Source: Trueperaceae bacterium
GTDB taxonomy: Bacteria; Deinococcota; Deinococci; Deinococcales; Trueperaceae
DNA length: 64,000 nucleotides
Reading direction: 5' to 3'
Assembly: GCA_040905465.1 (NCBI GenBank)
Contig: JBBDRK010000072.1
Location: 1 to 64,000, forward strand
Shown one piece after another: positions 1,912 to 47,107 of this stretch. Every line of letters begins with the position of its first letter. Position 1 is the first letter of the stretch. Position numbers and translations under genes: made by a program. A model generated the notes under the pieces. It saw only the letters and a program-made list of their open reading frames with translations, made no database searches and was not told the DNA's origin.

Positions 1912-2949
1912 TTGGATAACGTGCTGAGGGCAGGTCCGCACAACTCCATCACCGATGTTCCCGGTATCGAAGTCGGGCACGACACCGACGACGCAGCACT
2001 GACCGGGACGACCGTGATCCTCACCCGGGAAGGGGCGGTAGCGGGAGTCGACGTACGGGGCGCGGCGCCGGGAACGAGGGAAACAGATCTCCTCGCTCCG
2101 GAGAACCTGGTTCAGCGGGTACAGGCGATCGTGCTCTCCGGCGGCAGCGCCTTTGGCCTCGACGCCGCCGGTGGAGTTATGCGCTATCTCGAGGAACGCG
2201 GCCTGGGCCAGTCCGTAGGCGGGGGCCGGGTGGTTCCGATCGTGCCGGCGGCGGTGATCTTCGATCTCGACGTGGGCAGTTCGGCAGTCAGGCCCGGCCC
2301 GGAACACGGCTACCGGGCGGCCCAAAACGCCAGCTCTGATTGTCCCGCACAGGGGAACGTGGGCGCCGGTACCGGAGCTCGGGCCGGAGGACTGAAAGGC
2401 GGCCTCGGCTGCGCCAGCTTGCTGTTGGAAAGCGGGCTGGCGGTCGGGGCGATCGCGGTGGTAAACGCCTTCGGCCGGGCGCACGATCCGTTCACGGGCG
2501 AACTCTACGGCCGGTCTCTTGGGCTGCCGGGCGAATTCCAGGGCCTGGGAGTCCCAGCCGACCACGGCTACCGGGGGAGCGAGGACCGCGACTACCGAGC
2601 GCTCTTTGGCGACGATACTCCGCTTGCCGGCCGCAACACGACCATCGGCGTGATCGCCACTAACGCGCTGCTCGACAAGGCTCAGGCCGGAAAGCTGGCA
2701 CAGATGGCGCACGACGGGCTGGCGCGAGCGTTAAGACCATCGCACACCATGTTCGACGGCGACACGCTGTTCGCCCTTAGCACTGGGGAGCGGCAGGTCG
2801 CCGGTGCCGGCGAGCTGGCCATGCTCGGAGCGGTCGCCGCCGACACGATAGCCAGGGCGGTGGTCAGCGGCATGCTCAGCGCAACGAGCGCAGGTGGACT
2901 GAAGAGCTACTGCGACAGCTTCCCGGGCGTTTGCGGGAACCGGTCGTGA
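1912..2949 (+). CDS. P1/S58 family peptidase (DmpA-like L-aminopeptidase/D-esterase)
   Basis: NSITDVPGIEVGH, GAAPGTRETDLL, LSGGSAFGL, NTTIGVIATNA and HTMFDGD motifs. Confidence 0.9.
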   Translation: MDNVLRAGPHNSITDVPGIEVGHDTDDAALTGTTVILTREGAVAGVDVRGAAPGTRETDLLAPENLVQRVQAIVLSGGSAFGLDAAGGVMRYLEERGLGQSVGGGRVVPIVPAAVIFDLDVGSSAVRPGPEHGYRAAQNASSDCPAQGNVGAGTGARAGGLKGGLGCASLLLESGLAVGAIAVVNAFGRAHDPFTGELYGRSLGLPGEFQGLGVPADHGYRGSEDRDYRALFGDDTPLAGRNTTIGVIATNALLDKAQAGKLAQMAHDGLARALRPSHTMFDGDTLFALSTGERQVAGAGELAMLGAVAADTIARAVVSGMLSATSAGGLKSYCDSFPGVCGNRS

Positions 2950-4214
2950 GCGGCCGCGCCACCGGCGAACTGGCGCGGCGAGCTGCAGAGGCCGTCGATC
3001 CCACGCGGGCCGTCGAACTCACGCAGGCTCTGGTACGGATCCGCAGCGTGTTCGAGCCGGGCCATCCGGAGAGCAATGAGACGGCCGCGGCGACCTACCT
3101 GGCGGCCGTGTTGAGGAAGTCGGGTCTGCGGGTAACGGTCCAAGAGGTCGTGCCCGGCCGGCCGAACGTAATCGCAGACTGGCAGGGGACCGGCTTCCGA
3201 GCGAGCAGGCACAGGACCCTGATGTTCGAGGGACATACCGATGTGGTTACCGAAGGCGACCGTTCCGGTTGGACACACGACCCGTTCGCCGGCGAAGTCG
3301 TCGCCAGCCGGCTCTACGGGCGCGGCAGCGCCGACATGAAAGCCGGGATAGCCGCCGCCGTCACCGCCGTCGAGGCCGTAGCCAGTACCGCCCCCGACCT
3401 TGCCGGGCGAATTCGCCTCGGCATCGTGGTCGACGAAGAGGGGATGATGATCGGAATCAAGGACTTCATCGCTCGTGGCTGGGCGGCGGGGATCGATGGC
3501 GCCATCATCTGCGAGCCGGAGGAGAACGAGCTGTGCCTGCACCAGAAGGGTGCGTTGCGAATCGGCGTCACTTTCCGGGGGGTGATGTCGCACGGTGCCA
3601 TGCCCTATGCCGGAGTCAATCCGATACCGTGGCTGGCGCGCTTCGTGGAAGGCGTCGCCCGGATCGAGGCCGACGAGCAGGCGCGCGTGGGGGAGCACCC
3701 TCATCTGGGGCTCCCCTGGCTCACGCCGACCGTGGTACGGGCGCCCAAGGAGGGTGAGCAGCAGCTCAACGTACTTCCCGAGACGGCGTACCTGGCTCTC
3801 GATATCCGCACCGTGCCCGGACAGCAACATTCGGAGCTGCGCCGGCGACTCGCCGGGCTGGCGGCCGAGATAACCGCCGGCGACCCGCGTGCCGATATCG
3901 CTATCGAACTGATCGAGGAGCGGCCCTGGACCGAGACCTCCGCGGATGATCCGTTGGTGAAGGCACTGGAGCGAGCTTGTCGGATTGCGCTCGACCGGCA
4001 GCCGGCCTACGGAGGCGTGCCGGGCGCCACCGACGGTACCTTTCTGCATTCGCTCGCTGGAGTGCCGATAGTTACGGTGGGGCCGGGGGACCGGACCATT
4101 CCTCACCAGCGCGATGAGTTCGTGGAGGTCGAAGCGCTCGTGGAGTCGGCGCGGCTCTACGCGGCGGCCGCGGTCGAGTTCCTCGTCGCCGAAGGTTCCG
4201 AGAGCGAGCGCTAG
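2946..4214 (+). CDS. M20 family metallopeptidase/deacylase (ArgE/DapE-like)
   Basis: GHTDVV, GRGSADMKAG, DEE, CEP, GATDG and H..DEFV motifs. GTG start overlaps the upstream stop. Confidence 0.9.
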   Translation: MSGRATGELARRAAEAVDPTRAVELTQALVRIRSVFEPGHPESNETAAATYLAAVLRKSGLRVTVQEVVPGRPNVIADWQGTGFRASRHRTLMFEGHTDVVTEGDRSGWTHDPFAGEVVASRLYGRGSADMKAGIAAAVTAVEAVASTAPDLAGRIRLGIVVDEEGMMIGIKDFIARGWAAGIDGAIICEPEENELCLHQKGALRIGVTFRGVMSHGAMPYAGVNPIPWLARFVEGVARIEADEQARVGEHPHLGLPWLTPTVVRAPKEGEQQLNVLPETAYLALDIRTVPGQQHSELRRRLAGLAAEITAGDPRADIAIELIEERPWTETSADDPLVKALERACRIALDRQPAYGGVPGATDGTFLHSLAGVPIVTVGPGDRTIPHQRDEFVEVEALVESARLYAAAAVEFLVAEGSESER

Positions 4215-4292
4215 CGGTTAAGCTGGAGGCCGGACAGGCAGCCTGATAATTGCCCCGAGGCCGGGGCTCGGTTCAAAGGGAGGTTCATCAGC

Positions 4293-5783
4293 ATGAGACG
4301 TTTCTGGCTTACAACAGTCGGCATCCTTCTTGGGGTGGCAGCCCTTGCCCAACAACCTCCGGAACCGGTGTACGGGGGCGAAGCGGTCGTCGCCATAACG
4401 GCCGAACCGCCCGGCTGGGATCCGAGTGCTTCCACCTCTCAAGAGATAGCGCGCGTCATGTACCACAACGTATTCGAAGGGCTGGCACGGGTTGACCGGA
4501 ACGGCGCGATAGTGCCGGCGCTGGCCGAGTCGTGGGAAGTTTCCGACGACGGCCTCACCCTGACGTTCGAGTTGCGCCGCAACGTGAAGTTCCACGACGG
4601 CAGCGACTTCGGTGGCGACGACGTGGTGGCGAAGTTCGAGCGGGCGATGGATCCCGACTCTGGCCACACCCACCCCGAGTACTACGAAGCGATCGAGGAA
4701 GTCACGAGCGAGGGGAGTACCGTTACCTTCAGTCTGTCCCGCCCCAGCTCCGCCCTCCTCTACAACCTGGCTCGCCCTGACTCGGTCATCTATCCGGCCG
4801 GGACCGCGGAGAGTCAGCGCAGCGCCCCGGTTGGCACCGGCCCCTTCCGCTTCGTCGAGTGGGTGGCCGGCAGCGAAGTGCGCCTGGAGCGCTTCGACGA
4901 TTACTACATAGATGGGATACCCTACCTCGACGCCGTCACCTTTCGCATCATCGGGGACCCCAACGCCCGTTTCGCCGCGCTGCAGGCGGGGGACATCGAC
5001 ATGATCGGGGTGGCCCTGAGTCCGGAGTCGGCGATCCAGGCCGAAGCGGCCCCGAACCTCAAGGTCACGCGCGGTTCGAACACCACCGAGATCACCATGG
5101 CGCTCAACAATACTCGCGAGCCGCTGAACGACCCGCTGGTACGCCAGGCGATAACGCACGCCATCGACAAGAGCGCGATCGTCGAGGGAGCCAACTTCGG
5201 CTTCGGCACAGTCATCGGAACTCACGCCACGCCCGTCGAGCCTTACTGGCTCGAGTTGGAGCCTTATCCCTTCGATCCGGAGCGTGCCCGCGAGCTCCTG
5301 GCCGAGGCCGGTTACGGCGACGGCCTGTCACTGCGCTTCGAGCTGCCCGAGCCGTACAACATCGAACGCACCGCCGGTCAGGTAATCGCCCAACAACTCG
5401 CAGAGGTCGGTGTAAACGTCGAACTGAGCGTGGTGGAGTGGGGCACCTGGGTGCAGCGGATCTTCCTGGGCGGTGACTACGACATGACGATCATCGGCCA
5501 CAGCGAACCGCGTGATATCAACGTATATGGCAACCCCGATTACTACTATCACTACGACAACCCCAGGATCGGCGAACTGCTCGACGAAGCCGAGCTGGCC
5601 ACAAGTCAGGAAGCGGCGACCGAGAGCTACCGGGAGATCGCCCGCATCATCGCCGAGGATGCGGTGAACGTGTGGACTTTCAACCCTGCGTATCTGGTGG
5701 CCGCCAAGCAGGAGCTGTACGGGTACTGGGAAGATCAGCCGACGGTGGCGATCGACATGACCGAGGCTTTCCTGGCCCGCTGA
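4293..5783 (+). CDS. ABC transporter substrate-binding protein, family 5 (peptide/nickel)
   Basis: Signal peptide, PALAESWEVS.DGLT.TF.LR.NVKFHDG signature, GTGPF, and a strong SD (ggaggt). Confidence 0.93.
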   Translation: MRRFWLTTVGILLGVAALAQQPPEPVYGGEAVVAITAEPPGWDPSASTSQEIARVMYHNVFEGLARVDRNGAIVPALAESWEVSDDGLTLTFELRRNVKFHDGSDFGGDDVVAKFERAMDPDSGHTHPEYYEAIEEVTSEGSTVTFSLSRPSSALLYNLARPDSVIYPAGTAESQRSAPVGTGPFRFVEWVAGSEVRLERFDDYYIDGIPYLDAVTFRIIGDPNARFAALQAGDIDMIGVALSPESAIQAEAAPNLKVTRGSNTTEITMALNNTREPLNDPLVRQAITHAIDKSAIVEGANFGFGTVIGTHATPVEPYWLELEPYPFDPERARELLAEAGYGDGLSLRFELPEPYNIERTAGQVIAQQLAEVGVNVELSVVEWGTWVQRIFLGGDYDMTIIGHSEPRDINVYGNPDYYYHYDNPRIGELLDEAELATSQEAATESYREIARIIAEDAVNVWTFNPAYLVAAKQELYGYWEDQPTVAIDMTEAFLAR

Positions 5784-5893
5784 GCCAACCGCTCCCCAAG
5801 TCCCATGGAGCCGAATACGGCGTGGGAGCGCATGCGTGGCCGGCAGGTCCGCATGCGTTTCCTCGCCGCTGAGGGGAATGGCTAACCGAGCTA

Positions 5894-6838
5894 ATGCTGC
5901 CCTATCTGATTCGTCGCCTCGCCTCCGCCCTGATAAGCATCCTTCTGGCCGCGATACTCGTATTCGCGGCGCTCCTGGCAATTCCAGGCGACCCGGCCGA
6001 GATAATCCTGGGGCTGAACGCCAGCCCCGGAGCGGCCGCCGCGCTGCGTGAGCAACTCGGCCTCAACGTCCCTCCGGTGCCCAGGTTCCTGAACTGGCTG
6101 GGCGGGGCAATCCGAGGCGACTTCGGCGACTCGCTCAACTATCGCCGGCCGGTTTCGGAACTGCTGGCGGGCCGCCTTCAGGTCTCCATCCCGCTGGCGC
6201 TGGGCGCCATGCTGATCGCCTGCCTCATCGCCTTGCCTCTCGGCACGGTGGCCGCGCTCAGGCAAGGTACCTGGCTCGATCCTGTGATCGTCAGCTTTGC
6301 CCAAGTCGGCGCAGCTATCCCCTCATTCTGGCTCGGCCTTATGTTCATCCTCCTGTTCAGCGTGGAACTGGGCTGGCTGCCGGCAGGCGGATACGTTCCC
6401 TGGGAGAGAAGTCCCGTGAGCGCGATCCGCAGCCTGATCCTGCCGGCGCTGGCCCTGGGGTTGGGGCAAGCGGCGGTCATTACCCGGATGACGCGCGCGT
6501 CGATGCTCGATGTACAGCGCCAGGATTACGTTCGCACCGCCAGCGCCAAGGGGTTGCCGCGCCGCCGGGTGGTGCTGGTGCACACGTTGCGCAACGCCAT
6601 GGTGACAATCGTAACGATCATCGGCCTGAGCATGGCCCAGTTGTTGGTAGGCGCGATAGTCATCGAGCAGGTGTTCTCCTTGCCGGGCCTCGGCCGGCTT
6701 GCCCTCACGGCGATAGGCGCCCGGGACTTCCCGTTGTTGCAGGCCGAGGTCCTCCTGTACGCCAGCGCGATCGTGGCCCTGAGTTTCTCAGTCGACGTGC
6801 TGTACGCGTTCCTCGACCCGCGCATCAGGTACTCCTGA
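5894..6838 (+). CDS. Peptide ABC transporter permease (DppB/OppB-like)
   Basis: PGDPA, GDFGDS, EAA loop (DYVRTASAKGL), and IEQVFSLPGLG...DPRI. Confidence 0.93.
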   Translation: MLPYLIRRLASALISILLAAILVFAALLAIPGDPAEIILGLNASPGAAAALREQLGLNVPPVPRFLNWLGGAIRGDFGDSLNYRRPVSELLAGRLQVSIPLALGAMLIACLIALPLGTVAALRQGTWLDPVIVSFAQVGAAIPSFWLGLMFILLFSVELGWLPAGGYVPWERSPVSAIRSLILPALALGLGQAAVITRMTRASMLDVQRQDYVRTASAKGLPRRRVVLVHTLRNAMVTIVTIIGLSMAQLLVGAIVIEQVFSLPGLGRLALTAIGARDFPLLQAEVLLYASAIVALSFSVDVLYAFLDPRIRYS

Positions 6839-7719
6839 TGGCAAGGTTCCCGGCGACGTCGGGTTTCAGGTCCGGACTGAGCTGGCGAATAAGCGCTCTG
6901 TTCCGACCGTTTCGGGGCCGCGTCAACCTCGCGCTGGGCGCCGTGCTTATCGGCACGGTGGTGCTTTCGGCACTTCTGAGTTTCGTCTGGCTCCCGTACG
7001 ACCCCAACGTCATCGACTTCGGTGCCCGACTCGCTCCGCCGTCCGCGGAGCACTGGCTTGGGACCGACCATTTCGGGCGCGACCTGTTGAGCCGATTGAT
7101 GGTCGGTGCACGAGCGACTCTCTACGTCGGCTTGATCGCCGTCGGTATCGCCCTCGGCCTCGGTGGCCTGATCGGCGCGGCCAGCGGTTACATCGGCGGC
7201 GTGCTCGACGAACTGCTCATGCGCGTGGCCGACGTCCTGTACGCCTTTCCGCCGATTCTGCTGGCCATTCTGCTGGCAGCGATCTACCGTCCCGGTACCC
7301 TTACCGCCATGGTCGCCATCGGTATCGCCACCATTCCCGTGTTCGCCCGATTGATGCGCTCCTCGGTCCTGACTCTGAAAGAGCGTGATTTCGTCGAGGC
7401 CGGCCGGGCGCTGGGTGCCAGTGGCGGAAGGGTGCTGTGGCGCCACATCCTACCGAGCGCATTGTCGCCGATCCTGGTGCAGGCCAGTTTGAGCCTGGCG
7501 ATCGCCATCCTCGCCGAGGCCGCCTTGAGCTTCCTCGGCCTGGGTACGCCGCCACGCGTTCCGAGCTGGGGGAACATGCTGCGCGAGGCCCAAAGCTTCA
7601 TGGCGCTCAGCCCCTACCCCGCGATGGCGCCGGGCCTGGCGATAGTCGTCACGGTGCTGGGCTGGAGTCTGCTGGGCGACGGGTTACGCGATGCCCTCGA
7701 CCCCCAATCGCGTCGGTAA
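6838..7719 (+). CDS. Peptide ABC transporter permease (DppC/OppC-like)
   Basis: HWLGTDHFGRD, FVEAGRALGAS, EAALSFLGLG, and GDGLRDALDP. Confidence 0.93.
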   Translation: MARFPATSGFRSGLSWRISALFRPFRGRVNLALGAVLIGTVVLSALLSFVWLPYDPNVIDFGARLAPPSAEHWLGTDHFGRDLLSRLMVGARATLYVGLIAVGIALGLGGLIGAASGYIGGVLDELLMRVADVLYAFPPILLAILLAAIYRPGTLTAMVAIGIATIPVFARLMRSSVLTLKERDFVEAGRALGASGGRVLWRHILPSALSPILVQASLSLAIAILAEAALSFLGLGTPPRVPSWGNMLREAQSFMALSPYPAMAPGLAIVVTVLGWSLLGDGLRDALDPQSRR

Positions 7720-7837
7720 TGACCCCTTTATCCGATCGGGGGCTAGCCAAATGTGAAATATCTGTAATATAGTGCGTCACTCGATCCTCATTATGGGGAT
7801 ACCGACATTCGCAGCACTTCGACTCTAGGAGCCCCCG

Positions 7838-9217
7838 ATGAAGCGTCGCGCGTGCAAGTATCTGCAGTTTAGCCAGATGTGGTCGTTAGGTTGCGGCCTC
7901 GTCGGCATGGTGGTTGTCGTCGTACTGGCCGGCTGCAGCAATAGTCTGGGCCTGCCGGAAGAGGTGCCGTTGTCGGCCGGTATGGCCTCGCCTCGATACG
8001 TGCAGACACTCGAGCTCGTGGGCGGGGAGTCGATCGAGACAGTCGAGGAGCGTACCGGCGGCGACGTACTCGTCTGGAAGCCCGGGGAGTACGCCTTGAT
8101 CGGACTCGATTCGATCGGTGACAGAGACGAACCGACCCAAATCGAAACGATAGTCGAAGAAAACAGCGACTCGTTCCTGGCGGGCGGCAAGCTCGCGGAG
8201 ATGAACGGCAAGTCGATGATCTGGTCGGGCGGCAAGTCGATGATCTGGTCCGGCGGCAAGTCGATGATCTGGTCCGGCGGTAAATCCATGATCTGGTCCG
8301 GCGGCGAATTCGTATGGATGCCGGAGAACACCGCTACCTGGCAGCAGGTTCGGTTGGAAGAGGCTCAGGGAATGGCGGCCAATCTCGGTTACGGGGTAAC
8401 CGTGGCCGTGGTCGATACCGGCGTGGACCTTTATCATCCCGGGCTCAGCGAGGCGCTTGCTCCACAGTCCGACTGGTGGGACTTCTTCGATGACGACGCT
8501 CTTCCCCACGAAGACGGAAGTTACGGCGACCGTGGTTACGGGCACGGAACGAATGTAGCCGGGATCGTTCGCCAGATCGCTCCGCGAGCGACCATCCTGC
8601 CCCTGCGAGTGCTCGGGCCGAACGGTCAGGGCGACGTGGCCGACCTGTCATCCGCGATCGACTGGGCGGTCAGCAGGGGAGCCGACATCATCAATCTCAG
8701 CCTGGGCGCCGACCACCGGATTCAGGCGGTGGACAAGGCGCTGCGCAACGCTGCCCAGTCGGGTGTGTTCGTATTCACCTCCACCGGCAATACCGGAGAT
8801 CGGGATGTCACCTATCCTGCCACATCCACCTTCAACGGCGTCGAGGCTGACGCCATGGTGAACGTGACCAGCGTGGGTGCCAGCGACGAGAAGTCCGACT
8901 TCGCCACCTACCATCGGCAGATCGAGCTGGCGGCGCCCGGAGAGGACATCTTCGGTCCCGCACCGGAAGAGCGGATGGCGGCGTGGTCGGGAACATCGAT
9001 GGCCGCACCGATGGGTTCCGGCGCGTTGGCGCTGGCGCTCGGCGAGGTGCTTGCCGTGGAGAGAGAGTCGTTGCCTGGACTTCTCAAGGCAAGCTCCGCC
9101 GATGTCTATGCGGGCGGTCTCAACGGTCAGTACAAGAACGAGGTTGGAGACGGCCGTATAGACGTTGCTGCGTTCATCGAACGCGTCGCCTTTAGCGGGG
9201 GCAGCGAGACTGAATGA
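7838..9217 (+). CDS. S8 subtilase lipoprotein with (GKSMIWSG)x4 repeat
   Basis: Lipobox LAGC, catalytic triad VDTG / HGTNVAG / GTSMAAP, and oxyanion TGN. The repeat lies between the N-terminal region and the catalytic domain. Confidence 0.92.
   Translation: MKRRACKYLQFSQMWSLGCGLVGMVVVVVLAGCSNSLGLPEEVPLSAGMASPRYVQTLELVGGESIETVEERTGGDVLVWKPGEYALIGLDSIGDRDEPTQIETIVEENSDSFLAGGKLAEMNGKSMIWSGGKSMIWSGGKSMIWSGGKSMIWSGGEFVWMPENTATWQQVRLEEAQGMAANLGYGVTVAVVDTGVDLYHPGLSEALAPQSDWWDFFDDDALPHEDGSYGDRGYGHGTNVAGIVRQIAPRATILPLRVLGPNGQGDVADLSSAIDWAVSRGADIINLSLGADHRIQAVDKALRNAAQSGVFVFTSTGNTGDRDVTYPATSTFNGVEADAMVNVTSVGASDEKSDFATYHRQIELAAPGEDIFGPAPEERMAAWSGTSMAAPMGSGALALALGEVLAVERESLPGLLKASSADVYAGGLNGQYKNEVGDGRIDVAAFIERVAFSGGSETE
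8207..8302 (+). repeat. 4 x 24-bp coding tandem repeat (GKSMIWSG)
   Basis: Units at 8207, 8231, 8255 and 8279 differ only at synonymous sites. Confidence 0.95.
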
Positions 9218-9226
9218 GTTTCGCTG

Positions 9227-11848
9227 ATGCCCGCGGGTAAAGACGCAGCCACGGCATACGCTACGGGTCAGGAGCCGGGCCGGCTCGACCAGGCGATCGA
9301 GCTCCTGAGCAGCGATCCCGAGCAGGCGCTTTCGTTGGCCGAGGCCGAGCTGGCCGAAACAGCAGATTCGCGACAGACCGCTCGGGCGCTTCTGGTTATC
9401 GGTTCTGCCGCCTACCGGCTCGAACGGCCACAGGCGGCGGTCGAGCCCCTGAGCGAAGCACACGAACTCTACTTGACTCTCAACGATGAACCGCGCCGGC
9501 TCGAAGCGCTTATGCTTCTGGCGCGCACCGAACACGACCTGGGACGCTACCGAGAAGCGGCGGAGCGTTTCGGCGAGGTCCTGGTCGTCGCGCGGCGGCT
9601 AGGGGACGAGGTTACCGAGGCTGAGGCACTCAACCTGCAGGCCGGAGCGTTCAACTCGCAAGGAGAGTACGTTGCGGCCCTGGAACGCCTGACGGAAGCG
9701 CTCGAGATCGCTCAGAGGCTCGACTCGGCAGAGCGACAGGCGAATTTCTCGAGCAACATCGGGCTGCTGCACCTTCAGTTAGGAGATTACTCGAGAGCGC
9801 TCGAGAGCCTCAAGGCGGCCTACGAACTGATTCGGGTGGCAGCTCCCGGAACGCGGAGCGAGGCAGCCAATCTGATCAGCTTGGGCCGCGTTTACCTGGA
9901 GATGGAGGAACCGTCAAGGGCCCAGGAATTCTTTACTCTGGCCCATGACGTGGGCCAGCAGGCGGGAGACTCGACCGTGGAGGCCGCCTCGCTCAATCAC
10001 CTCGCCAGCATCTGTTGTTCTCATCAGGATTGGCAAGGCGCCGGGCGGCTATACCGGGACGCGTTGGAGGTTGCGAGGCGCATGGGCAACCGGGGCTACG
10101 AAATCGACAATCTCGATGGTCTCGGGCAGGTGCACTCAGCCTTGGGCGAGCACCAGGACGCGGGAGACGCCTACCACGAGGCGTTGACCATCGCGCGCGA
10201 GATCGGAGACCTCGAGGGCGAAACCGACGCCCTCCTGAACCTGGGGCGCGGCAGCATGGCAATGGGTCACTTCGCCGATGCCATAGCTCCGCTGGAGCAG
10301 GGGCTCGAGTTGGCAAAGCGGCTCGAGCGCAGGCGCTCGCGCTTCGAGGCGCACGAGCTGCTGGCCGAAGCATACGAGCACGAAGGCGATCTCGTGAGCG
10401 CGATCAGGCACCACCGTGAGTTCTACCGGGTAGAGAAGGCGGTTTTCAACGAGGAAAGCGAGGACCGCGTTCGCCGCCTTACGGTGCAGTTCGAGCTGGA
10501 ACGTGCCCGCAGTGAGGCGGAGGCTTATCGGGTGCGTACCGAGCTGGCGCAACGGGCACAGGAAGAGGCGGAGGAGAGGGTGCGGGCGCGTACGCTCGAG
10601 CTGGAAGAAGCACAGCTGGAGATCGTCACCCGGCTGGCGATCGCCGCCGAGTACCGCGACGACGAGACCGGTGAGCACACCTGGCGAGTGGGCCGCAACG
10701 CCGCCGCCATCGCCGCCCGCCTCGGGTGGTCAGACGACGAGGTCAAACTCATATCGGTGGCGGCGCGCCTGCACGACGTCGGCAAGATAGGTATCCGCGA
10801 CGCAGTGCTGCTCAAGCCCGGCAAGCTCAGCAGCGACGAGTACGAGCTGATGCGAAGGCATACCATGATCGGCGGACGGATCCTCTCCGGAGGGCATTCG
10901 CGGCTGCTGCGCATGGCGGAAGAGATCTCGTTCGCACACCACGAGCGTTGGGACGGCAAGGGCTACCCACTCGGACTGGTGGCGGAGGAGATTCCGCTGT
11001 CGGCCCGGATTGTCGCGGTCGCGGACGTGCTCGACGCCCTGAGCCATGCACGGCCATACAAGCGCCCATGGCCGGTCGCAGACGCCCTGGCGGAGGTGCG
11101 CCGGTATAGCGGCCACCAGTTCGATCCCAAAGTAGTCGCCGCCTGCATGGATGTATTCAACGTGTCAGGCGGGCTCTCGCCGGTCCAGGAAGCGCCCCGG
11201 CCGGCCGGCGAAGGATCGACCCGGCCGGTGCCGAGCACCATTCCAATGAGGTATCGATTCGAGAAGGTGCTGGCCGAGCGCACCCGGGAGTTGGAACAGG
11301 CACGGCGCGAAGCCGAAACCGCCGCCCGCCGGATGCAGGTGATGGCGTTTTCCGACACCCTTACGGGTCTCGGCAATCGACGGGCGTTCGAGGCGGATCT
11401 CGATGCCGAAGTGGTTCGCGCCTTGCGCCACAGCGACCGTATCGCCGTGCTGACCATCGATCTCGACGACCTGAAGGTGGTGAACGATCGTGAAGGGCAC
11501 GAGCGGGGGGACGATCTGCTGCGCGCCTTTGCCGGAGCGATCCACCTGAAGCTCAAGGAGATGGGCCGCGTCTACCGGGTCGGCGGGGACGAGTTCGCGG
11601 TGATCCTGGTCCACCTGGGGATGCACGATGTGGAGTCCGCCCGCTCCAAGGTGCGCGAGGCCATTGCCGCCTTACGCGAGTCCGGCTTCCCGGGCATGAT
11701 GGCGAGTGCCGGGCTGGCGGTTCTGCCGGAGGAAGCGGGCTCAGTGGCCGACCTTCTGCGACTGAGCGATCAGCGTATGTACCAGGACAAGATGGTGCGC
11801 AAGGCGTCGTCGGGCATGACCGGGCCTTCATCCGGCGGGGCCACCTGA
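9227..11848 (+). CDS. TPR-repeat + HD-GYP + GGDEF signalling protein
   Basis: About 400 aa of N-terminal TPR-like helical repeats, LHDVGKIG and HHERWDGKGYP, DTLTGLGNRR, and RVGGDEF. Confidence 0.92.
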   Translation: MPAGKDAATAYATGQEPGRLDQAIELLSSDPEQALSLAEAELAETADSRQTARALLVIGSAAYRLERPQAAVEPLSEAHELYLTLNDEPRRLEALMLLARTEHDLGRYREAAERFGEVLVVARRLGDEVTEAEALNLQAGAFNSQGEYVAALERLTEALEIAQRLDSAERQANFSSNIGLLHLQLGDYSRALESLKAAYELIRVAAPGTRSEAANLISLGRVYLEMEEPSRAQEFFTLAHDVGQQAGDSTVEAASLNHLASICCSHQDWQGAGRLYRDALEVARRMGNRGYEIDNLDGLGQVHSALGEHQDAGDAYHEALTIAREIGDLEGETDALLNLGRGSMAMGHFADAIAPLEQGLELAKRLERRRSRFEAHELLAEAYEHEGDLVSAIRHHREFYRVEKAVFNEESEDRVRRLTVQFELERARSEAEAYRVRTELAQRAQEEAEERVRARTLELEEAQLEIVTRLAIAAEYRDDETGEHTWRVGRNAAAIAARLGWSDDEVKLISVAARLHDVGKIGIRDAVLLKPGKLSSDEYELMRRHTMIGGRILSGGHSRLLRMAEEISFAHHERWDGKGYPLGLVAEEIPLSARIVAVADVLDALSHARPYKRPWPVADALAEVRRYSGHQFDPKVVAACMDVFNVSGGLSPVQEAPRPAGEGSTRPVPSTIPMRYRFEKVLAERTRELEQARREAETAARRMQVMAFSDTLTGLGNRRAFEADLDAEVVRALRHSDRIAVLTIDLDDLKVVNDREGHERGDDLLRAFAGAIHLKLKEMGRVYRVGGDEFAVILVHLGMHDVESARSKVREAIAALRESGFPGMMASAGLAVLPEEAGSVADLLRLSDQRMYQDKMVRKASSGMTGPSSGGAT

Positions 11849-12048
11849 CCATCTCGTTCTGGGCGTGCTCGAGCAACCGCCGACCAGCATCCCGGACATC
11901 GACGCCGATCCGGACTTAAGGGACCGGTAAGGGTCGATAGGGCATTCTGTATTAGAGTTTAAACATCGACGATCGACGAACTGTCGTTACGTTGCTGATT
12001 ATCCAAGTTATACTTCAAAGCTCATCAGCCGCGAAGGAGCCCCCATCC

Positions 12049-13455
12049 ATGAGTCGCCTCGGACTTGATAACCGATACGGAAATCGCCTGCGTAGCTTCC
12101 TGCTCGCCGCTTCGTTTCTTGGGCTCGCCGCCTGTGGCGGCGTTACCGACGGTGGTCCGGGCGGTGGCGGAAACGGCGATGGAGAGCTGCCAGACGAACC
12201 GTTCATCGCGGACGTCCAGAGCCCCAATTTCGTTCTCGCAGTCGAACTCGAGAGCGGGGATACCGTCGAGGGCGTCGAGGAGCGCTATGGCGGTGACGTC
12301 ATCGTCTGGGAGTCCGACGATTACGCGCTTCTGGGCCTGGAGTCGGAACCGGTAAAGGGCGACTTAGCTTTTGAGCTGATCTGGGAGCGTAACAGCAAGG
12401 AGTTCGTTGCCGGCGGAACAATCGCTTTCAGCGGCAGCTCTACGGTGTGGGCAGGCGGCGCCTCGACCGTCTGGGCCGGCGGTGCCTCGACTGTTTGGGC
12501 CGGCGGTGCATCTACCGTGTGGGCAGGCGGCGAGTATCAGTGGGTACCGGAAAACGACCCGGTCTGGGCACAAATTGAGTTGGAGCCGGCGCACACGATA
12601 GCGCCGAACCTCGGAAACGGCGTCACGGTGGCGGTAATCGACACCGGCCTCGACCTGGAGCATCCGGCTCTTAAACAAGCGCTGTCGCCGAGCGGGCAAT
12701 GGTGGGACTTCGTCGACAATGACGCACTGCCTCAGGATATTGGCGACTTCGGCGAAGGTGGCTATGGGCACGGGACGAACGTAGCCGGGATAGTTCGGCA
12801 GATCGCTCCGCGGGCCGTCATTCTCCCCATTCGAGTGCTTGGTTCAGACGGGCAAGGCAATGTGGCTGACCTGGCGGCTGCCATTGACTGGGCGGTAACG
12901 ATGGGCGCGGACGTCATTAACCTCAGTCTGGGAGCCGACAAGCGCCTCAGGACGGTCGACAAGGCGCTCAAGCGAGCCGCCGGAGAAGGCGTTTTCATCA
13001 CTAGCTCCGCCGGTAACGACAACATCGAAGAGCTCAGTTACCCGGCACGTGAAAGTGACCAGGGCCGGCCTGAACAGCGCGAACATATGATCAGCGTCAG
13101 TAGCGTCAGCAGCGGCGACGCCAAGTCGGAGTTCGCGAACTTCGGCAAGAAACTCGAGCTCTCCGCGCCCGGGGAGAACGTCTACGGGCCCGCCCCGACT
13201 CAGGGGGGCGAACCAATGTTGGCATCGTGGTCGGGCACCTCCATGGCTGCCCCAATGGCCGCTGGCGCCATCGCGCTGGCACTAGGCGAGCCAATTAGCG
13301 TAGATCGCCAACATTTGGCTGAATACCTGAAGACATCGTCTTTGGACATTTACGGCATCGAAGAGAATACGAAGTACAAACACGAGGAGCTTGGCGAGGG
13401 TCGCCTCGATGTCCATCAGTTCCTTCTCGATGTTTTGGGTGGCGGGGACAGGTAA
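12049..13455 (+). CDS. S8 subtilase lipoprotein with (GASTVWAG)x4 repeat; paralog of 7838-9217
   Basis: SD aaggag then ATG 12049, lipobox LAAC, triad IDTG / HGTNVAG / GTSMAAP, and AGN oxyanion. Confidence 0.92.
   Translation: MSRLGLDNRYGNRLRSFLLAASFLGLAACGGVTDGGPGGGGNGDGELPDEPFIADVQSPNFVLAVELESGDTVEGVEERYGGDVIVWESDDYALLGLESEPVKGDLAFELIWERNSKEFVAGGTIAFSGSSTVWAGGASTVWAGGASTVWAGGASTVWAGGEYQWVPENDPVWAQIELEPAHTIAPNLGNGVTVAVIDTGLDLEHPALKQALSPSGQWWDFVDNDALPQDIGDFGEGGYGHGTNVAGIVRQIAPRAVILPIRVLGSDGQGNVADLAAAIDWAVTMGADVINLSLGADKRLRTVDKALKRAAGEGVFITSSAGNDNIEELSYPARESDQGRPEQREHMISVSSVSSGDAKSEFANFGKKLELSAPGENVYGPAPTQGGEPMLASWSGTSMAAPMAAGAIALALGEPISVDRQHLAEYLKTSSLDIYGIEENTKYKHEELGEGRLDVHQFLLDVLGGGDR
12433..12528 (+). 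repeat. 4 x 24-bp coding tandem repeat (G[S/A]STVWAG)
   Basis: Units at 12433, 12457, 12481 and 12505 show many synonymous differences and one S/A difference. Confidence 0.95.
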
Positions 13456-13464
13456 ACTTAGCCG

Positions 13465-15495
13465 ATGCCCCGGCGCGACGAGACCGTCCAGGCGGCCTAT
13501 CCTTCAATAGACTCCGCGGCGGACGAATTGGCGGATGCCGTTACTCTGCTGCATTCGGACCCAGTCGAAGCGGTCCGCGTAGCCAGGCGTATCGTGGAGT
13601 CGACCGACGATGCAGGCGTTCAAGCACGTGCCCTACAGCTCATTGGCGAGTCGGAGTACTCCGGCGGGCGTGCTAAAGAGGCGCTCGAACCCCTCAGTCG
13701 CTCCCGAACGCTATTCGCAAGCACGGGTCCCTCGGAGTCTTTCTTTACCACTCTCCTGTTGCTGGCGAGAGTAGAGCGCGAGATGGCTCTGCTCGATGAA
13801 GCGGCCGGACACGCCGCTGAAGCTCTTGAAATGGCTCGGAGTCTTGGTGATAGAAGGGCCGAGTGTGAGGCCCTGAATATCTATGCGGGCGTCGTCAGTT
13901 CGCAGGGGAAACACGTCGATGCAATCGAGTGCCTCGAGGCGGCGCTTTCAATAGCAAAGCAGTTGGGCATCGGCGAACAGGAAGCGCACATTCTCAGCAA
14001 CCTGGGAAACCTTCGTAGGCAGGTCGGCGATTACCCGACCGCCCTCGTGCACCTGAAGGCAGCGGATGAACTGCTACGCGCACGGGCACCCGGTACACGG
14101 TCCGAAGCAGTAAATCTAATCAATCTGGGCCACTTGTACCGGGAGATGGACAACTATCCGGCAGCCGGCGAGTTTTTCTCGCGAGCCAGGGAAGTCGGCA
14201 GACTTGCCAAGGACTCCATTCTGGAGGCTGCATCGCTGAATTCGCTGGCAAACGTCCTCGGGCGGTCGGAAGACTGGACGGGAGCCGGAGAGTTATACCA
14301 GGAGGCGTTGGAGGTTTCTCGGCGCGACGGTCTGCGCCAGTACGAGATCGATAACCTCGATGGCCTCGGCCAGGTGTACGCGGCGCTGGGGGATTACGAG
14401 AAGGCACGGCACGCCCATGACCGGGCGCTGGATATCGCTCGCAAGTCCGGCGAGCGCGAGGGTGAAATCGATGCACTGCTGAACCTCGGTCGTGATTACC
14501 TGGCACTCGACCGGGCGGAAGAGGCGGTGTCCGCGCTGCGTGAGAGCCTGAAGCTCGCCGAAGCGCAGGGCCGTAAGAGGTCACTGTTCGAGGCTCACCA
14601 ATTGCTCGCGGAGACTTATGCCAAGCAGGGTCGGTTTGAAGCAGCTTTCCGCCACCACCAAGAGTTCTACCTTGCCGAGAAGGTCGTCTTCAATCAGGAG
14701 AACGAAGATCGCGTCCGACGCCTTACCGTACAGTTCGATCTGGAACGTGCGCGGCACGAAGCCGAAACTTATCGTGTGCGAACAGAGGTGGAGCAGCAGG
14801 CGCGCGAACGGGCCGAGGCGATGGTGCGAGAACGGACGCGCGAGCTGGAAGAGGCGCAGCAGGAGATCGTTGCGCGGTTGGCTATCGCCGGTGAGTATCG
14901 CGACGACGGGACCGGCGAGCACACCCGCCGGGTCGGGCGCAACGCCGCCGCCATCGCTCGCGCTTTCGACTGGCCGCAAGACGAAGCGGACCTACTTTTC
15001 TCGGCTGCCCGCTTGCACGATGTCGGCAAGATCGGCATCCGGGACTCCGTGCTTCTCAAGCCAGGCAAGCTCAGTGACGAAGAGTTCGAGCTAATGCGCG
15101 GGCATTCGACGATCGGCGGACGCATTCTGTCGGGAGGTCACTCACGCTTGTTGCGGATGGCCGAGGAGATCGCCTTTGCCCACCACGAACGGTGGGACGG
15201 AAAGGGCTATCCGAACGGACTCAAGGGCGAAGAGATTCCGATGTCGGCCCGAATTGTCGCAGTGTCCGACGTCCTGGACGCACTCACGCACGAGCGCCCT
15301 TACAAGGACGCCTGGTCGGTGTCAGATGCACTGGCGGAGATCGAGGCGCACAGCGGAACGCAGTTCGACCCGCGGGTAGTCGCCGCTTGCCTCGACGTGT
15401 TCAATGACCGGGGTGGGATTTCGCCCACCCAGAACGTTCCGGCTACGACTGTCGAACCCGAGCCGGGCCAGGTGGATGGGGCGCTAGAGCGCTAG
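13465..15495 (+). CDS. TPR-repeat + HD-GYP phosphodiesterase; paralog of 9227-11848 lacking GGDEF
   Basis: TPR-like repeats collinear with the first copy, plus LHDVGKIG and HHERWDGKGYP. Confidence 0.92.
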   Translation: MPRRDETVQAAYPSIDSAADELADAVTLLHSDPVEAVRVARRIVESTDDAGVQARALQLIGESEYSGGRAKEALEPLSRSRTLFASTGPSESFFTTLLLLARVEREMALLDEAAGHAAEALEMARSLGDRRAECEALNIYAGVVSSQGKHVDAIECLEAALSIAKQLGIGEQEAHILSNLGNLRRQVGDYPTALVHLKAADELLRARAPGTRSEAVNLINLGHLYREMDNYPAAGEFFSRAREVGRLAKDSILEAASLNSLANVLGRSEDWTGAGELYQEALEVSRRDGLRQYEIDNLDGLGQVYAALGDYEKARHAHDRALDIARKSGEREGEIDALLNLGRDYLALDRAEEAVSALRESLKLAEAQGRKRSLFEAHQLLAETYAKQGRFEAAFRHHQEFYLAEKVVFNQENEDRVRRLTVQFDLERARHEAETYRVRTEVEQQARERAEAMVRERTRELEEAQQEIVARLAIAGEYRDDGTGEHTRRVGRNAAAIARAFDWPQDEADLLFSAARLHDVGKIGIRDSVLLKPGKLSDEEFELMRGHSTIGGRILSGGHSRLLRMAEEIAFAHHERWDGKGYPNGLKGEEIPMSARIVAVSDVLDALTHERPYKDAWSVSDALAEIEAHSGTQFDPRVVAACLDVFNDRGGISPTQNVPATTVEPEPGQVDGALER

Positions 15496-15572: not shown

Positions 15573-17060
15573 TCAATAGTCATCGCGGTAGCTCACCGCT
15601 TCCGCCAGGTGCTCCTCACAAATTCGTCTGCTGCCAGATAGATCGGCTATCGTTCGCGCCACCCGAAGGAGCCGATCGAAGCCCCTGCCTGACATCGAAA
15701 GCCTGCCGATCACGTGCCTTGCGAACGACTCGCAAGACGCGTCCAAAGAGCAGTAACGGCGGAGAGCCGCTGCCGTGAGTCGCGCGTTGGTACTGCCCTG
15801 GCGCTCCAGGGCGGTTTGCCGTGATCGAACCACACGCGCACGAATCGCCGCGCTCGACGGGCCACCAGGCGAGCGCAGAACGTCCTCCGGCGGAACGCGC
15901 GGTACGGTGATGCGCAGGTCGATCCTGTCGAGCAGCGGGCCTGAAATTCGGTCACGGTACCTTCGAAGCAGTGCCGGGGAACAGATACAGACGTGTGCGG
16001 GATCTCCGCTGTAGCCGCACAGACATGGGTTGCGGCTGGCGATCAGCAGAAAGCGAGCAGGGAATGTGAGACTGCCACGCGCCCGGCTTATGGTGACGAC
16101 GCCATCCTCGAGGGGCTGACGCAGCGCTTCCAGGGCGGTGCGATTGAACTCGCTGAACTCGTCGAGGTGCAAGACGCCGTTGTGAGCCAGGCTCACCTCT
16201 CCCGGGCGCGGCGATCCGCCCCCGCCGATGAGTCCGGCGTAGGAGATGGTGTGGTGCGGCTGTCGGAATGGGGGCCGCACGGACAGGCCCCGGGCAGGCA
16301 GTCCGGTGGCGGATAGAACGCGGGAAGCCTCGACCGCCTCACCGGTCAGCAGGTCGGGCATGATCCCTGGCAGGCGCGTCGCTAGCATCGTCTTGCCGGC
16401 ACCCGGCGGCCCGGTCATGAGCAGGTTGTGGCCGCCGGCGGCGGCGACTTCGAGTGCGCGCTTCGCACCTGCCTGACCCTTAACCTCTGCAAAATCCGGG
16501 CCGGGAGGCCCCCGTACAGGCGGCGGCGGTTCGACCGGTGCGAGTGCAATGACGCCACGCAGAAATCGCACCGATTCGGCCAGCGAGCGAGGCGCTACCA
16601 CGTCGATGCCGGCCACCGACGCTACTTCCGGAGCGTTCCCAGGCGGGACGATCACGCGCCTTGCGCCAGCGGCCTGCGCCAGCAGCCCGATACTCACCGC
16701 TCCGCGCACAGGACGCAGCTCGCCATCCAGCGCGAGCTCCCCCACGCAGATCGTGCTCGTCAACGAATCCGGCGGCAGTGCTCTCTGAGCCAACAGCAGC
16801 GCCAAGGCGATGGGCAGGTCGAACGCCGGCCCCTCCTTGCGCACGTCCGCCGGGGCCAGGTTGATTACCACCCTCCGCATCGGGAATGGGAGTTCCGCGT
16901 TCTGGAGTGCCGCCCGCACGCGCTCTCGCGACTCCTGAACGGCCGCTCCAGGCAGCCCGACGATGAGAAGGTGGGGTAAGCCGTTGGCGATGTCTGCCTC
17001 CACTCGCACTTCGAAAGCCTCGATGCCGAGAAGGGCAGCCGACGTTGCTTGCGCGAGCAT
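15573..17060 (-). CDS. comM: YifB/ComM family Mg-chelatase-like AAA+ ATPase
   Basis: VQESRERVR, NLAPADVRKEG, GPPGAGKT, PGEVSLAHNGVL.LDE, and ISGPLLDRID. Confidence 0.9.
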   Translation of the reverse strand: MLAQATSAALLGIEAFEVRVEADIANGLPHLLIVGLPGAAVQESRERVRAALQNAELPFPMRRVVINLAPADVRKEGPAFDLPIALALLLAQRALPPDSLTSTICVGELALDGELRPVRGAVSIGLLAQAAGARRVIVPPGNAPEVASVAGIDVVAPRSLAESVRFLRGVIALAPVEPPPPVRGPPGPDFAEVKGQAGAKRALEVAAAGGHNLLMTGPPGAGKTMLATRLPGIMPDLLTGEAVEASRVLSATGLPARGLSVRPPFRQPHHTISYAGLIGGGGSPRPGEVSLAHNGVLHLDEFSEFNRTALEALRQPLEDGVVTISRARGSLTFPARFLLIASRNPCLCGYSGDPAHVCICSPALLRRYRDRISGPLLDRIDLRITVPRVPPEDVLRSPGGPSSAAIRARVVRSRQTALERQGSTNARLTAAALRRYCSLDASCESFARHVIGRLSMSGRGFDRLLRVARTIADLSGSRRICEEHLAEAVSYRDDY

Positions 17061-17273
17061 GACCGATGGTATTGCCAAAGTGCCTGGCCCGGTTGCCTGA
17101 GCTCGGCCCAGGCCAATTATTACCCGGCCTCGGACGGCGTCACATTTGGTATTGTTGGATACGGCGCAAATACTTTCGACCGATATTGCGTACCCGGACC
17201 ATTGCCGAAGCGTCCGGGGGGTGACCGACGGCAGCGGAGTTACCGAGCAAGAACGTCGTAACTGGAGGAAGAG

Positions 17274-18044
17274 ATGAAAAAGTTCAAGAACGCTGTCGTA
17301 CTGGTACTGCTCGCTGGGTTGCTGACCTCGTGTGGTGCACTCATCGGCCAGCTCATCGGAGCGCAGCCGGCCGAGAATGCCTTGGGCCTCGATGCCGTCG
17401 AAGTGGCTGCTGCCAAGCAGTCCGAGGAACCGACCTTCGAGTCGGCCGGCCTGACTACTCAGGCGGTCCGCGAGTACTTCGTCGGAAGCCTCGCGGACAC
17501 GTTCGAGGACGTCGACTGGGAAGCCATTCAGGCAGAATCCCCGGTCGCCCTCCCGGCACCGAAGAGCTACAGCGAGGTGATCGGGATCAGCGGGAGCGCC
17601 ACGGTGGCAGCTACCGGTAGCTCGAGCGACCTGCCCGCCGTGCTCACGCTTGTTGCATTCTGGGCGGAAATCGCGGTCACTGACGCAGACGGAACACCCA
17701 CCTTCGAAAAGTTGTTCGGCAAGGAAGAAGGCGTCTCGGTTCAGTTCGACAAGGGAGAGTGCTCGGAGACCGCTGGTAGCGTTTCCTGTGCCTACACCAC
17801 CGACGCCGCGGCGAGCGAGCTCAGCAGCCTGATCGATCTCTCGGTGGGCGGCAGCGACTTCTCGACACTGTGGAACGACATCCTTACGAACGACGATCCC
17901 GCGGACCAGAGCGATGTCGCCGACCAGAACGCGATCAGCGGCACGGTCTTTCTCTATGTCGAAGCGGCCGCCCCGACACCGGCCGACACCTCGATCACGG
18001 TTAGCCTCGACACTTCCAACGGGACGATCAACTTCGCCAACTAG
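17274..18044 (+). CDS. Acidic hypothetical lipoprotein
   Basis: SD ggagg, MKKFK signal with lipobox LTSC, and consistent codon usage. Confidence 0.8.
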   Translation: MKKFKNAVVLVLLAGLLTSCGALIGQLIGAQPAENALGLDAVEVAAAKQSEEPTFESAGLTTQAVREYFVGSLADTFEDVDWEAIQAESPVALPAPKSYSEVIGISGSATVAATGSSSDLPAVLTLVAFWAEIAVTDADGTPTFEKLFGKEEGVSVQFDKGECSETAGSVSCAYTTDAAASELSSLIDLSVGGSDFSTLWNDILTNDDPADQSDVADQNAISGTVFLYVEAAAPTPADTSITVSLDTSNGTINFAN

Positions 18045-46702: not shown

Positions 46703-46816
46703 ACCCGGGCCGCCGGTTCGCCGGCCGGCATCTGGCAAAGCCGGACCGTTATCGATTCAGTACCGTGCATCTCAATGCCGGATGCTGTAGCCATATCTGG
46801 CCACGCCTCGGCTCAC

Positions 46817-46968: not shown

Positions 46969-47107
46969 GTTTGTGGCGGGCGGTGCCCGCACCACAAGTA
47001 TAGTGCTCTACTGCGAGGCGAACGTGTCGCACGCCTGGGGGTCGAGTTCGGGACCTCTGCCACCACACCTGAGGCCGCGCGCTAGCGTATCGGTTACAGT
47101 GCCCCGC

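Follow-up and report, generated by a model that had tools for sequence, protein, structure and literature searches.

A stretch of 64,000 nucleotides (nt) from a Trueperaceae bacterium (contig JBBDRK010000072.1, positions 1 to 64,000; here called the window) carries two collinear gene pairs on its + strand, each of which joins a protease of the S8 family (a subtilase) to a protein with tetratricopeptide repeats (TPR). The protease holds an array of short cassettes, each with one tryptophan (Trp), that are largely uniform within a protein, differ between proteins and appear to diverge along with the neighboring TPR domain. We propose, with a confidence that stays slightly short of even, that each pair is a two-gene peptide signalling module leading from a maturing pro-subtilase via a Trp peptide to the cognate TPR domain.

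Two S8-TPR gene pairs lie in tandem

The pairs were identified from an open reading frame (ORF) listing and from Pfam and NCBIfam scans, with the S8 gene preceding the TPR gene in each. The S8-to-TPR intergenic gap is 9 nt in both, which confirms the two tandem, collinear pairs with 9-nt gaps described in an earlier, sequence-only reading of this DNA. S8-2 starts about 200 nt past the end of TPR-1; its ORF opens at TTG 11992, and the likely start is ATG 12049, in agreement with gene call P0045. The features of the two modules are as follows.

7838-9217, + strand: S8-1, lipoprotein pro-subtilase with Trp-repeat array, 459 amino acids (aa) (PF00082, E = 2.4e-37)
7838-7936, + strand: S8-1 signal peptide and lipobox L-A-G-C (Cys33), from the translation
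7970-8167, + strand: S8-1 propeptide-like N-domain, residues ~45-110 (AlphaFold2 model, predicted local distance difference test score [pLDDT] ~95)
8210-8305, + strand: S8-1 array, KSMIWSGG four times (sequence; pLDDT 30-47)
8306-8326, + strand: S8-1 junction E-F-V-W-M-P-E, the pro/mature boundary by homology
8321-9217, + strand: S8-1 catalytic domain with triad D193, H236 and S387 (Pfam, motifs)
9227-11848, + strand: TPR-1, predicted cytoplasmic protein with TPR, HD-GYP and GGDEF domains, 873 aa (Pfam)
~9284-10516, 10649-11134 and 11345-11791, + strand: TPR, HD-GYP and GGDEF domains of TPR-1, respectively
12049-13455, + strand: S8-2, second lipoprotein pro-subtilase, 468 aa from ATG 12049 (PF00082, E = 4.9e-41)
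12436-12531, + strand: S8-2 array, SSTVWAGG followed by ASTVWAGG three times (sequence)
13465-15495, + strand: TPR-2, predicted cytoplasmic protein with TPR and HD-GYP domains and without GGDEF, 676 aa (Pfam)
14908-15378, + strand: HD-GYP domain of TPR-2

S8-1 and S8-2 are 54% identical, and TPR-1 and TPR-2 are 60% identical. A third module was found on another contig of the same genome, where an S8 gene with five G[ML]S[ST]VWGG units is followed by a TPR-HD-GYP-GGDEF gene. When the genome was searched with a profile of the N-domain plus repeats, three S8 genes only were matched, and all three are paired with a TPR gene. In a quick tree of TPR domains the two window modules (W1 and W2) form one group with the related locus L022 at a support of 96, indicating that the two modules of the window probably arose by a fairly recent tandem duplication.

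The cassettes are placed in the pro-region of a subtilase

Both S8 proteins possess the subtilisin-order Asp-His-Ser triad together with the PF00082 profile and belong to the Peptidase S8 family. The motifs DTG193, HGT236 and GTSMA385 are present, and the triad D193/H236/S387 is invariant across 42 aligned sequences. The lipobox Cys33 is kept in at least 90% of the 42 homologues, and the strongest hydrophobic window of S8-1 spans residues 16-34. Pfam, the motifs and the L-A-G-C lipobox therefore agree with the exported lipoprotein protease with an intact triad that had been read from the letters of the window. Two narrower assignments were rejected on score, namely the type VII secretion mycosins (TIGR03921; 123.4 and 131.4 bits versus a cut-off of 278.75) and the PatA/PatG cyanobactin proteases (48.8 bits versus a cut-off of 421).

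The AlphaFold2 model of S8-1 has a mean pLDDT of 86, with high values at residues 45-95 and in the catalytic domain and values of 30-47 in the array; the array scored likewise (30-47) in a second model, built from the N-terminal part alone. A structural repeat of the beta-solenoid or cell-wall-binding kind is not favored by these low values in two models, a confidence level that still allows it. The best structural match of the S8-1 model is unautoprocessed pro-subtilisin E (3whi_A; Z = 42.3, root mean square deviation 2.2, 331 residues aligned, model residues 52-448), and pro-Tk-subtilisin (2e1p) was matched at Z = 40.5. In this whole-model search the N-domain overlays the propeptide of the pro-subtilisins, and the model has the layout of a pro-enzyme, in which a propeptide N-terminal to the S8 catalytic domain packs against it. 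Taken alone, the N-domain gave weak RRM/ferredoxin-like matches (Z at most 4.5), and its leads in the ESM Atlas were I9 and Peptidase_S8_N clusters, below 0.9.

Chains of mature subtilisins align from model residue 149-161 onward only. Residue 22 of mature BPN' aligns to S8-1 residue 183, so mature residue 1 would fall at about residue 162, the Pro of the W-M-P-E-N-T junction, for which the 42-sequence alignment gives the family consensus x-F-x-W-M-P-E-N-T. The predicted anatomy of the protease is therefore a lipoprotein signal, an I9-like propeptide, a conserved lead-in unit, 2 to 7 variable cassettes, a conserved junction and the catalytic domain. By homology with pro-subtilisins the repeats belong to the pro-region and lie outside the mature enzyme, as the sequence-only reading had supposed.

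Cassettes are kept alike within a protein and differ between proteins

The units in the window follow the pattern x-S-x-x-W-[AS]-G-G, with eight residues per unit and four units per S8 protein. Tandem Repeats Finder reported a period of 24 in both arrays (4.2 copies with 93% matches and 3.5 copies with 83% matches). Differences in DNA among the four KSMIWSGG copies of S8-1 are all synonymous, and unit 1 of S8-2 is one residue off the other three; the exactly four copies of an octapeptide noted for each protein thus hold in number, and in S8-2 not all four are identical.

By the strict pattern, at least two eight-residue units are present in 102 of the 120 best homologues, and the repeat is therefore not a product of chance. 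Several of the remaining 18 were seen in the alignment to have variant units, for example W-S-D-G or W-A-E-G, and loci that fail the 8-mer pattern carry 7-residue or W-x-x-W units such as GSKAWAD, GTRAWAS, GWATWGS and GRRAWST. Arrays of the family comprise 2 to 7 cassettes of 7 to 8 residues with a single invariant Trp each, over 32 to 56 residues. The profile of the N-domain plus repeats retrieved 265 representatives at E up to 0.001 from 1.84 billion proteins; among the matches listed, 139 of 149 readable proteins have at least two similar consecutive Trp units. A convincing stand-alone precursor, consisting of N-domain and repeats, was not found among the 265 profile matches, the short ones of which resemble contig-end fragments or frameshifted gene calls.

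Selection on the cassettes was assessed with units from 83 proteins (80 related loci and 3 proteins of the genome itself), 67 of which have arrays of the 8-mer pattern. At least two units identical in amino acid sequence occur in 65 of the 67 arrays, and the proportion of synonymous differences (pS) among 230 identical pairs is 0.50. As an unbiased subset we took every array of three units with a mismatch between units 1 and 2, 17 in total. In every one of these A-B-A arrays (17/17) unit 1 equals unit 3 in protein, while the two differ by 1 to 6 nucleotides each, and 57 of 57 differences are synonymous (pS 0.54; proportion of nonsynonymous differences [pN] 0). Between proteins, pN reaches 0.56 to 0.72 at positions 1 to 4, the Trp at position 5 and the Gly at position 8 never vary, and 58 of the 65 major units are distinct. 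These codon comparisons show that purifying selection keeps the copies within an array alike.

A TPR sensor gene with interchangeable outputs accompanies the protease gene

The gene neighborhood was analyzed in the best 80 of 461 relatives, drawn from contigs of one genome per species. All-against-all ORF clustering revealed only two conserved families, the S8 protease (80/80 loci) and the TPR protein (70/80). The next clusters (56, 25 and 14 loci) consist of opposite-strand ORFs inside the S8 and TPR genes, which we read as shadow ORFs, and the next real flanking family occurs in at most 8 of the 80 loci. Beyond these two families nothing is conserved in the 80 loci, neither a transporter or radical SAM protein nor a gene for modification, export or immunity. 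Linkage was counted only where at least 1.5 kb of flank was available.

Loci with strict 8-mer repeats (62): 59 with flank; TPR gene adjacent in 57 (55 downstream on the same strand, 2 upstream and divergent)
Loci with other repeat types (18): 16 with flank; TPR gene adjacent in 12
All loci: 75 with flank; TPR gene adjacent in 69

The spacing of downstream same-strand TPR genes is often 4 nt, and the exceptions among the strict-repeat loci are L045 and L051. The association of repeat-bearing S8 genes with TPR signalling genes, which the sequence-only reading had made a test of its proposal, is thus found in 57 of 59 strict-repeat loci and 69 of 75 loci overall, and these neighborhoods show the two module genes to be inherited together.

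In both TPR proteins of the window, TPR_12-type repeats spanning ~400 residues are joined by a coiled linker to an HD-GYP domain. Pfam matched TPR_12 (E = 2.7e-32), HD_5 (PF13487; E = 9.2e-30) and GGDEF (PF00990; E = 3.7e-31) in TPR-1, and TPR_12 (E = 1.9e-59) and HD_5 (E = 1.2e-32) in TPR-2. With the HD_5/HD profile and both motifs present (HD516 and GYP579 in TPR-1; HD518 and GYP581 in TPR-2), the two proteins have the sequence features of HD-GYP phosphodiesterases of cyclic di-GMP (c-di-GMP), and TPR-1, with an intact GGDEF motif at residue 786, also has those of a GGDEF diguanylate cyclase. No convincing membrane span was detected in 66 partner proteins, with the hydrophobic segments of TPR-1 and TPR-2 checked as well. 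The earlier description of the second genes as cytoplasmic TPR-HD-GYP proteins consequently stands, and the GGDEF domain of TPR-1 has to be added to it.

Partner outputs across the loci include HD-GYP, HD-GYP plus GGDEF, GGDEF alone, GGDEF-EAL, HisKA_3-HATPase, and a hybrid kinase followed by a REC-HD-GYP gene, as assigned by Pfam scans of 11 proteins and, for the others, by similarity to the domains of the window. A module described as controlling c-di-GMP, as the sequence-only reading had it, accordingly fits the HD-GYP and GGDEF partners and is too narrow for the histidine kinases. Mapping four output labels onto the quick TPR tree, which comprises 65 partners, takes no fewer than 15 changes of output. 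An input domain that stays constant next to a protease gene while its outputs are exchanged is characteristic of a sensor with a stimulus linked to that protease.

Cassette divergence follows the TPR domain

Covariation was analyzed for 42 modules. To be included, a module needed two or more identical units in an 8-mer array, an HD-GYP domain and, downstream, a TPR hit spanning 330 residues or more. Fifty modules passed the array and TPR conditions, eight without HD-GYP were dropped, and the third module of the genome itself was left out. Correlations with peptide distance were as follows.

TPR domain: r = 0.475, permutation p at most 0.0005
S8 catalytic domain: r = 0.357, p at most 0.0005
N-domain: r = 0.339, p at most 0.0005
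HD-GYP domain: r = 0.29, p at most 0.0005
TPR domain, controlling for S8: r = 0.338, p at most 0.0005
TPR domain, controlling for N-domain: r = 0.357, p at most 0.0005
S8 catalytic domain, controlling for TPR: r = -0.04, not significant
HD-GYP domain, controlling for TPR: r = -0.08, not significant
N-domain, controlling for TPR: r = -0.05, not significant

The N-domain is a useful control, since its rate of evolution matches that of the TPR domain (mean distance 0.674 versus 0.656). In this exploratory analysis, the divergence of the peptide appears to follow the TPR domain rather than the protease's own domains, in line with the repeat/TPR covariation that the sequence-only reading had anticipated.

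A proposed peptide signal and the alternatives

In the mechanism that we propose, the exported protease would remove its own pro-region, as subtilisins do, with subtilisin propeptide processing as the model. Given this processing, and because the cassettes share x-x-x-W with the junction (E-F-V-W / M-P-E-N-T), we infer that each cassette is a cleavage site; if every repeat were cut, one short Trp peptide would be set free in several copies. This peptide would then be taken back into the cell by a general oligopeptide importer and occupy the groove of the cognate TPR domain, whereby the output would be switched. The outputs in the window would be c-di-GMP hydrolysis in both modules and c-di-GMP synthesis in module 1, and in other modules peptide binding would set kinase activity. 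Such a signal could tell the cell of protease export and activation, of cell density, or of both, and different cassettes would provide separate channels.

Several observations weigh against this proposal. The module is not accompanied by a conserved peptide transporter: only 3 of the 80 loci have an SBP_bac_5 homologue within 7 kb, so that the peptide importer encoded beside S8-1 (see below), suggestive as it is, is no family feature. Modules 2 and 3 of the genome share the core S-T-V-W, which counts against strict orthogonality and leaves the orthogonal channels claimed earlier standing in part. A few members lack a TPR neighbor (L045, L051, L069, L071 and a set of five tandem S8 genes in L087). 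With regard to covariation, partial Mantel tests are liberal for related sequences and kinship inflates the values, and fast-evolving regions are correlated among themselves in this data set (N-domain versus TPR given S8, r = 0.379). With regard to selection, some arrays (L066, L027 and L063) are homogenized at the DNA level; copy-specific synonymous signatures across species gave no signal (21 orthologous versus 23 crossed matches), a result that does not separate gene conversion plus purifying selection from parallel change; and pN and pS between proteins are near saturation, so that a ratio near 1 is no proof of diversifying selection. Finally, low pLDDT is not proof that the array is disordered.

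The repeats could instead serve the protease alone, as a flexible tether or as a staged multi-cut "fuse" that times activation or membrane release, in which case the TPR protein would sense something else and share a transcript with the protease simply as its regulator or as a co-regulated gene. We consider this unlikely, though it deserves serious attention. It would account for an array that sits exactly at the pro/mature junction, is predicted to be disordered and linker-like, and consists of units every one of which resembles the junction; unit identity could then reflect the fit to the enzyme's own substrate pockets, and repeat-bearing members without a TPR neighbor would be expected. However, neither a tether nor a cleavage site needs identity at positions that are freely variable between proteins, and the substrate-cleft motif S-L-G is invariant across the family, whereas the cassettes vary. 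Furthermore, once the TPR domain is controlled for, nothing is left of the correlation between peptide and S8 catalytic domain, whereas the correlation with the TPR domain survives the reverse control, and it is the TPR domain, with no particular output, that has stayed with the S8 gene through all the output changes counted above.

A second alternative, which we regard as rather improbable, is secretion-coupled sensing without a free peptide. Here the TPR domain would bind the repeats of S8 precursors that have not been exported, and export would free the sensor and change its output. Covariation, linkage and the tight spacing of the genes (9 nt here and 4 nt in many loci) would all be explained without an importer; the genes would be translationally coupled, and several units could gather several sensor molecules, a multivalency that could suit GGDEF enzymes, which act as dimers. 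TPR chaperones are known to couple secretion to regulation in type III secretion. On the other hand, lipoprotein precursors are normally exported quickly by Sec and would leave the cytoplasm fast, and the arrangement assigns no role to the placement of the cassettes at a cleavable pro/mature junction. An orphan S8 gene also bears on this point. The S8 protein of L045, which lacks a TPR neighbor, is 53% identical to the TPR-linked S8 protein of L085 from the same metagenome-assembled genome (the assignment of both contigs to a single organism depends on binning), and each carries ARTMWAGG twice with a different middle unit. That an orphan keeps the A unit of the paired protein speaks for the peptide signal, and it agrees with a trans-acting signal no worse than with secretion-coupled sensing.

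That the cassettes are cores of a secreted bioactive peptide (antimicrobial, metal-active or surface-active), made in several copies in the manner of multi-core RiPP precursors and carrying no signal to the producer, is very improbable: identical, multi-copy, strain-hypervariable cores do resemble cyanobactin and fungal KEX2-processed repeat precursors, and the S8 domain is weakly similar to PatA/PatG-type proteases, but it scores far under the cut-off of that model (see above), modifying enzyme, exporter and immunity genes are not conserved nearby in the 80 loci, and the partner that is conserved, a cytoplasmic sensor, covaries in sequence with the peptide.

Of these readings, the peptide signalling module is the best supported. 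Taken as a whole, the interpretation put forward in the sequence-only reading is partly supported by our comparative analyses. Even if the signalling model fails, the identity of cassettes within a protein and their difference between proteins, beside a TPR sensor, needs explaining.

Distribution of the module

Of 364 Deinococcota genomes, 163 were matched by the family profile, and the number of copies in a matched genome ranges from 1 to 11 or more. When the set was narrowed to genomes of 90% completeness or better and no more than 5% contamination, 127 of 263 were matched. By family, the matched genomes were distributed as follows.

Family f1, the window's own: 34 of 127
Family f2: 92 of 125
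Family f3: 19 of 19
Family f4: 0 of 23
Family f5: 17 of 68

Being widespread in this way and often present in multiple copies, the family may constitute a major regulatory layer. The genome-by-genome census covered Deinococcota; the named loci belong to Trueperaceae, Deinococcus, Meiothermus and Calidithermus, and a wider range is possible, the loci being the best 80 of 461.

A member of the family was also found on each of eleven Deinococcus replicons of a plasmid collection. In L078 (Deinococcus rufus) and L079 (plasmid pDYP1 of D. yunweiensis), the TPR-GGDEF-EAL partners are near-identical, with branch lengths of 0 and 0.004, and the S8 genes share the unit SVGVWGNG in 5 to 7 copies. This likeness points to a recent transfer of the whole module. 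A different arrangement is seen in L087 (4857-14395), from a Meiothermus metagenome-assembled genome, where a tandem row of five paralogous S8 genes, the central one carrying GWNAWSS three times, has no TPR gene at a distance of 7 kb or less.

Surroundings of the modules in the window

A cluster of genes for peptide use (window 1912-7719, + strand) lies directly 5' of S8-1, and no ATPase gene was seen in that stretch. A promoter-like site was noted 5' of S8-1; two such sites were found, versus 1.1 expected from shuffles. No tRNA genes were found in the window. The features around the modules are as follows.

1912-2949, + strand: S58 peptidase
2931-4214, + strand: M20 peptidase
4293-5783, + strand: SBP_bac_5 binding protein
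5894-6838 and 6838-7719, + strand: two ABC permeases
7744-7773, + strand: promoter-like site 5' of S8-1 (weak consensus match, 9/12 hexamer positions)
15573-17078, - strand: Mg-chelatase-like ATPase of the ChlI/YifB type
17274-18044, + strand: 256-aa protein with a lipoprotein-like N-terminus and without a Pfam match
46814-46969, - strand: flavin mononucleotide (FMN) riboswitch (101.9 bits versus a gathering score of 66.2)

Elsewhere in the same genome (locus L089, contig C69), a gene for an 801-aa protein with C-terminal TPR repeats (2530-4935) is followed by one for an S8 lipoprotein without Trp repeats (5053-6531). This looks like a different kind of regulator-protease pair, in which the N-terminus of the regulator resembles, by eye, that of a SARP/ATPase regulator.

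Comparison with known systems

One protein that has been described before appears to be a member of the same module. In D. radiodurans NZ_OV024759.1 (L091), an S8 gene carrying LGARPIWIW twice precedes a TPR gene and an HD gene, with a transposase gene between the latter two (5243-9117). According to a passage of the paper concerned (PMC11219805), DR_A0342 combines an HD-GYP with a GGDEF domain, and in strain ATCC 13939K it is interrupted by IS2621. The layout of L091 agrees with this insertion. Because a transposase stands between them, the two annotated pieces in NZ_OV024759.1 are probably DR_A0342, a protein with TPR, HD-GYP and GGDEF domains. The passage treats DR_A0342 as a c-di-GMP enzyme only and does not mention a neighboring protease or peptide there (PMC11219805). 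The locus amounts to a natural knockout of the sensor beside an intact S8 gene, and D. radiodurans has one such module. Literature searches, with supplements outside the search, found no published description of the protease-sensor pair and none of the architecture as a signalling system, in accordance with what the sequence-only reading had stated.

In logic, a close parallel is provided by the RRNPP(A) systems (Rap-Phr, NprR-NprX, PlcR-PapR, PrgX and Rgg), in which the gene of a cytoplasmic TPR receptor adjoins the source gene of a short secreted peptide, extracellular proteases, subtilisins included, mature the peptide, and some propeptides are multi-copy. The module is nevertheless not an RRNPP(A) system. 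Its outputs are HD-GYP, GGDEF, EAL and histidine kinase domains, whereas RRNPP(A) receptors have a helix-turn-helix (HTH) or a Rap phosphatase module, and no HTH domain was found in the Pfam-scanned partner proteins. In place of a separate small propeptide gene, the adjacent gene encodes a protease of 430 to 600 aa that itself holds the candidate peptide units. The module occurs in Deinococcota, whereas RRNPPA systems are reportedly those of Firmicutes. Homology of the TPR domains to those of RRNPP(A) is not established by profile comparison: a search of the PDB with the TPR profile placed a RapH chain (E = 4.8e-14) below generic TPR matches (LGN/Pins and kinesin light chain). As to copy number, one paper reports that some Phr propeptides hold tandemly duplicated pheromone copies (PMC11343458).

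With pro-subtilisins (pro-subtilisin E and pro-Tk-subtilisin), the protease shares the fold, the D-H-S triad and an I9-type propeptide docked on the S8 domain, and unlike them it adds a Trp cassette array at the junction, a lipoprotein signal and linkage to a TPR gene. The yeast alpha-factor precursor contains several identical peptide copies that are cut out by Kex2, and fungal KEX2-processed repeat proteins are said to yield multi-copy peptides excised by a subtilisin-family protease. The likeness lies in identical copies of a short peptide within one precursor and in a subtilisin-family cutter. The fungal systems, however, have two proteins for precursor and protease and read the peptide with a G protein-coupled receptor at the cell surface, whereas the module would combine precursor and protease in one polypeptide and have a cytoplasmic receptor.

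Enterococcal sex pheromones are cut out of lipoprotein precursors that also serve another purpose, and after import they are sensed by a receptor in the cytoplasm; they are derived from the signal sequence, single-copy and Eep-dependent. Cryptococcus reportedly secretes Qsp1, a peptide that is taken up through Opt1 and acts intracellularly. The module as proposed would resemble the former in that a signal peptide is cut from a lipoprotein, reimported and read in the cytoplasm, and the latter in that a secreted peptide is imported and acts within the cell. In neither of them do peptide and protease form one protein, and neither ties the peptide to c-di-GMP enzymes.

Set against these systems, the module may represent a new kind of peptide signalling, so far confined to Deinococcota, in which pheromone cassettes reside in the pro-region of their own maturation protease and a TPR receptor is wired to c-di-GMP enzymes or histidine kinases, with fast-evolving pairs of cassette and TPR domain supplying up to a dozen private channels per genome; we advance this tentatively, as a possibility only a little less than evenly balanced. 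If true, peptide signalling through cytoplasmic TPR proteins would extend beyond Bacillota and their phages, and c-di-GMP turnover would gain a direct link to a peptide signal. The signal would then be part of the protease itself, in the form of cassettes that can be cut away, and this economical design would report the export and activation of the enzyme.

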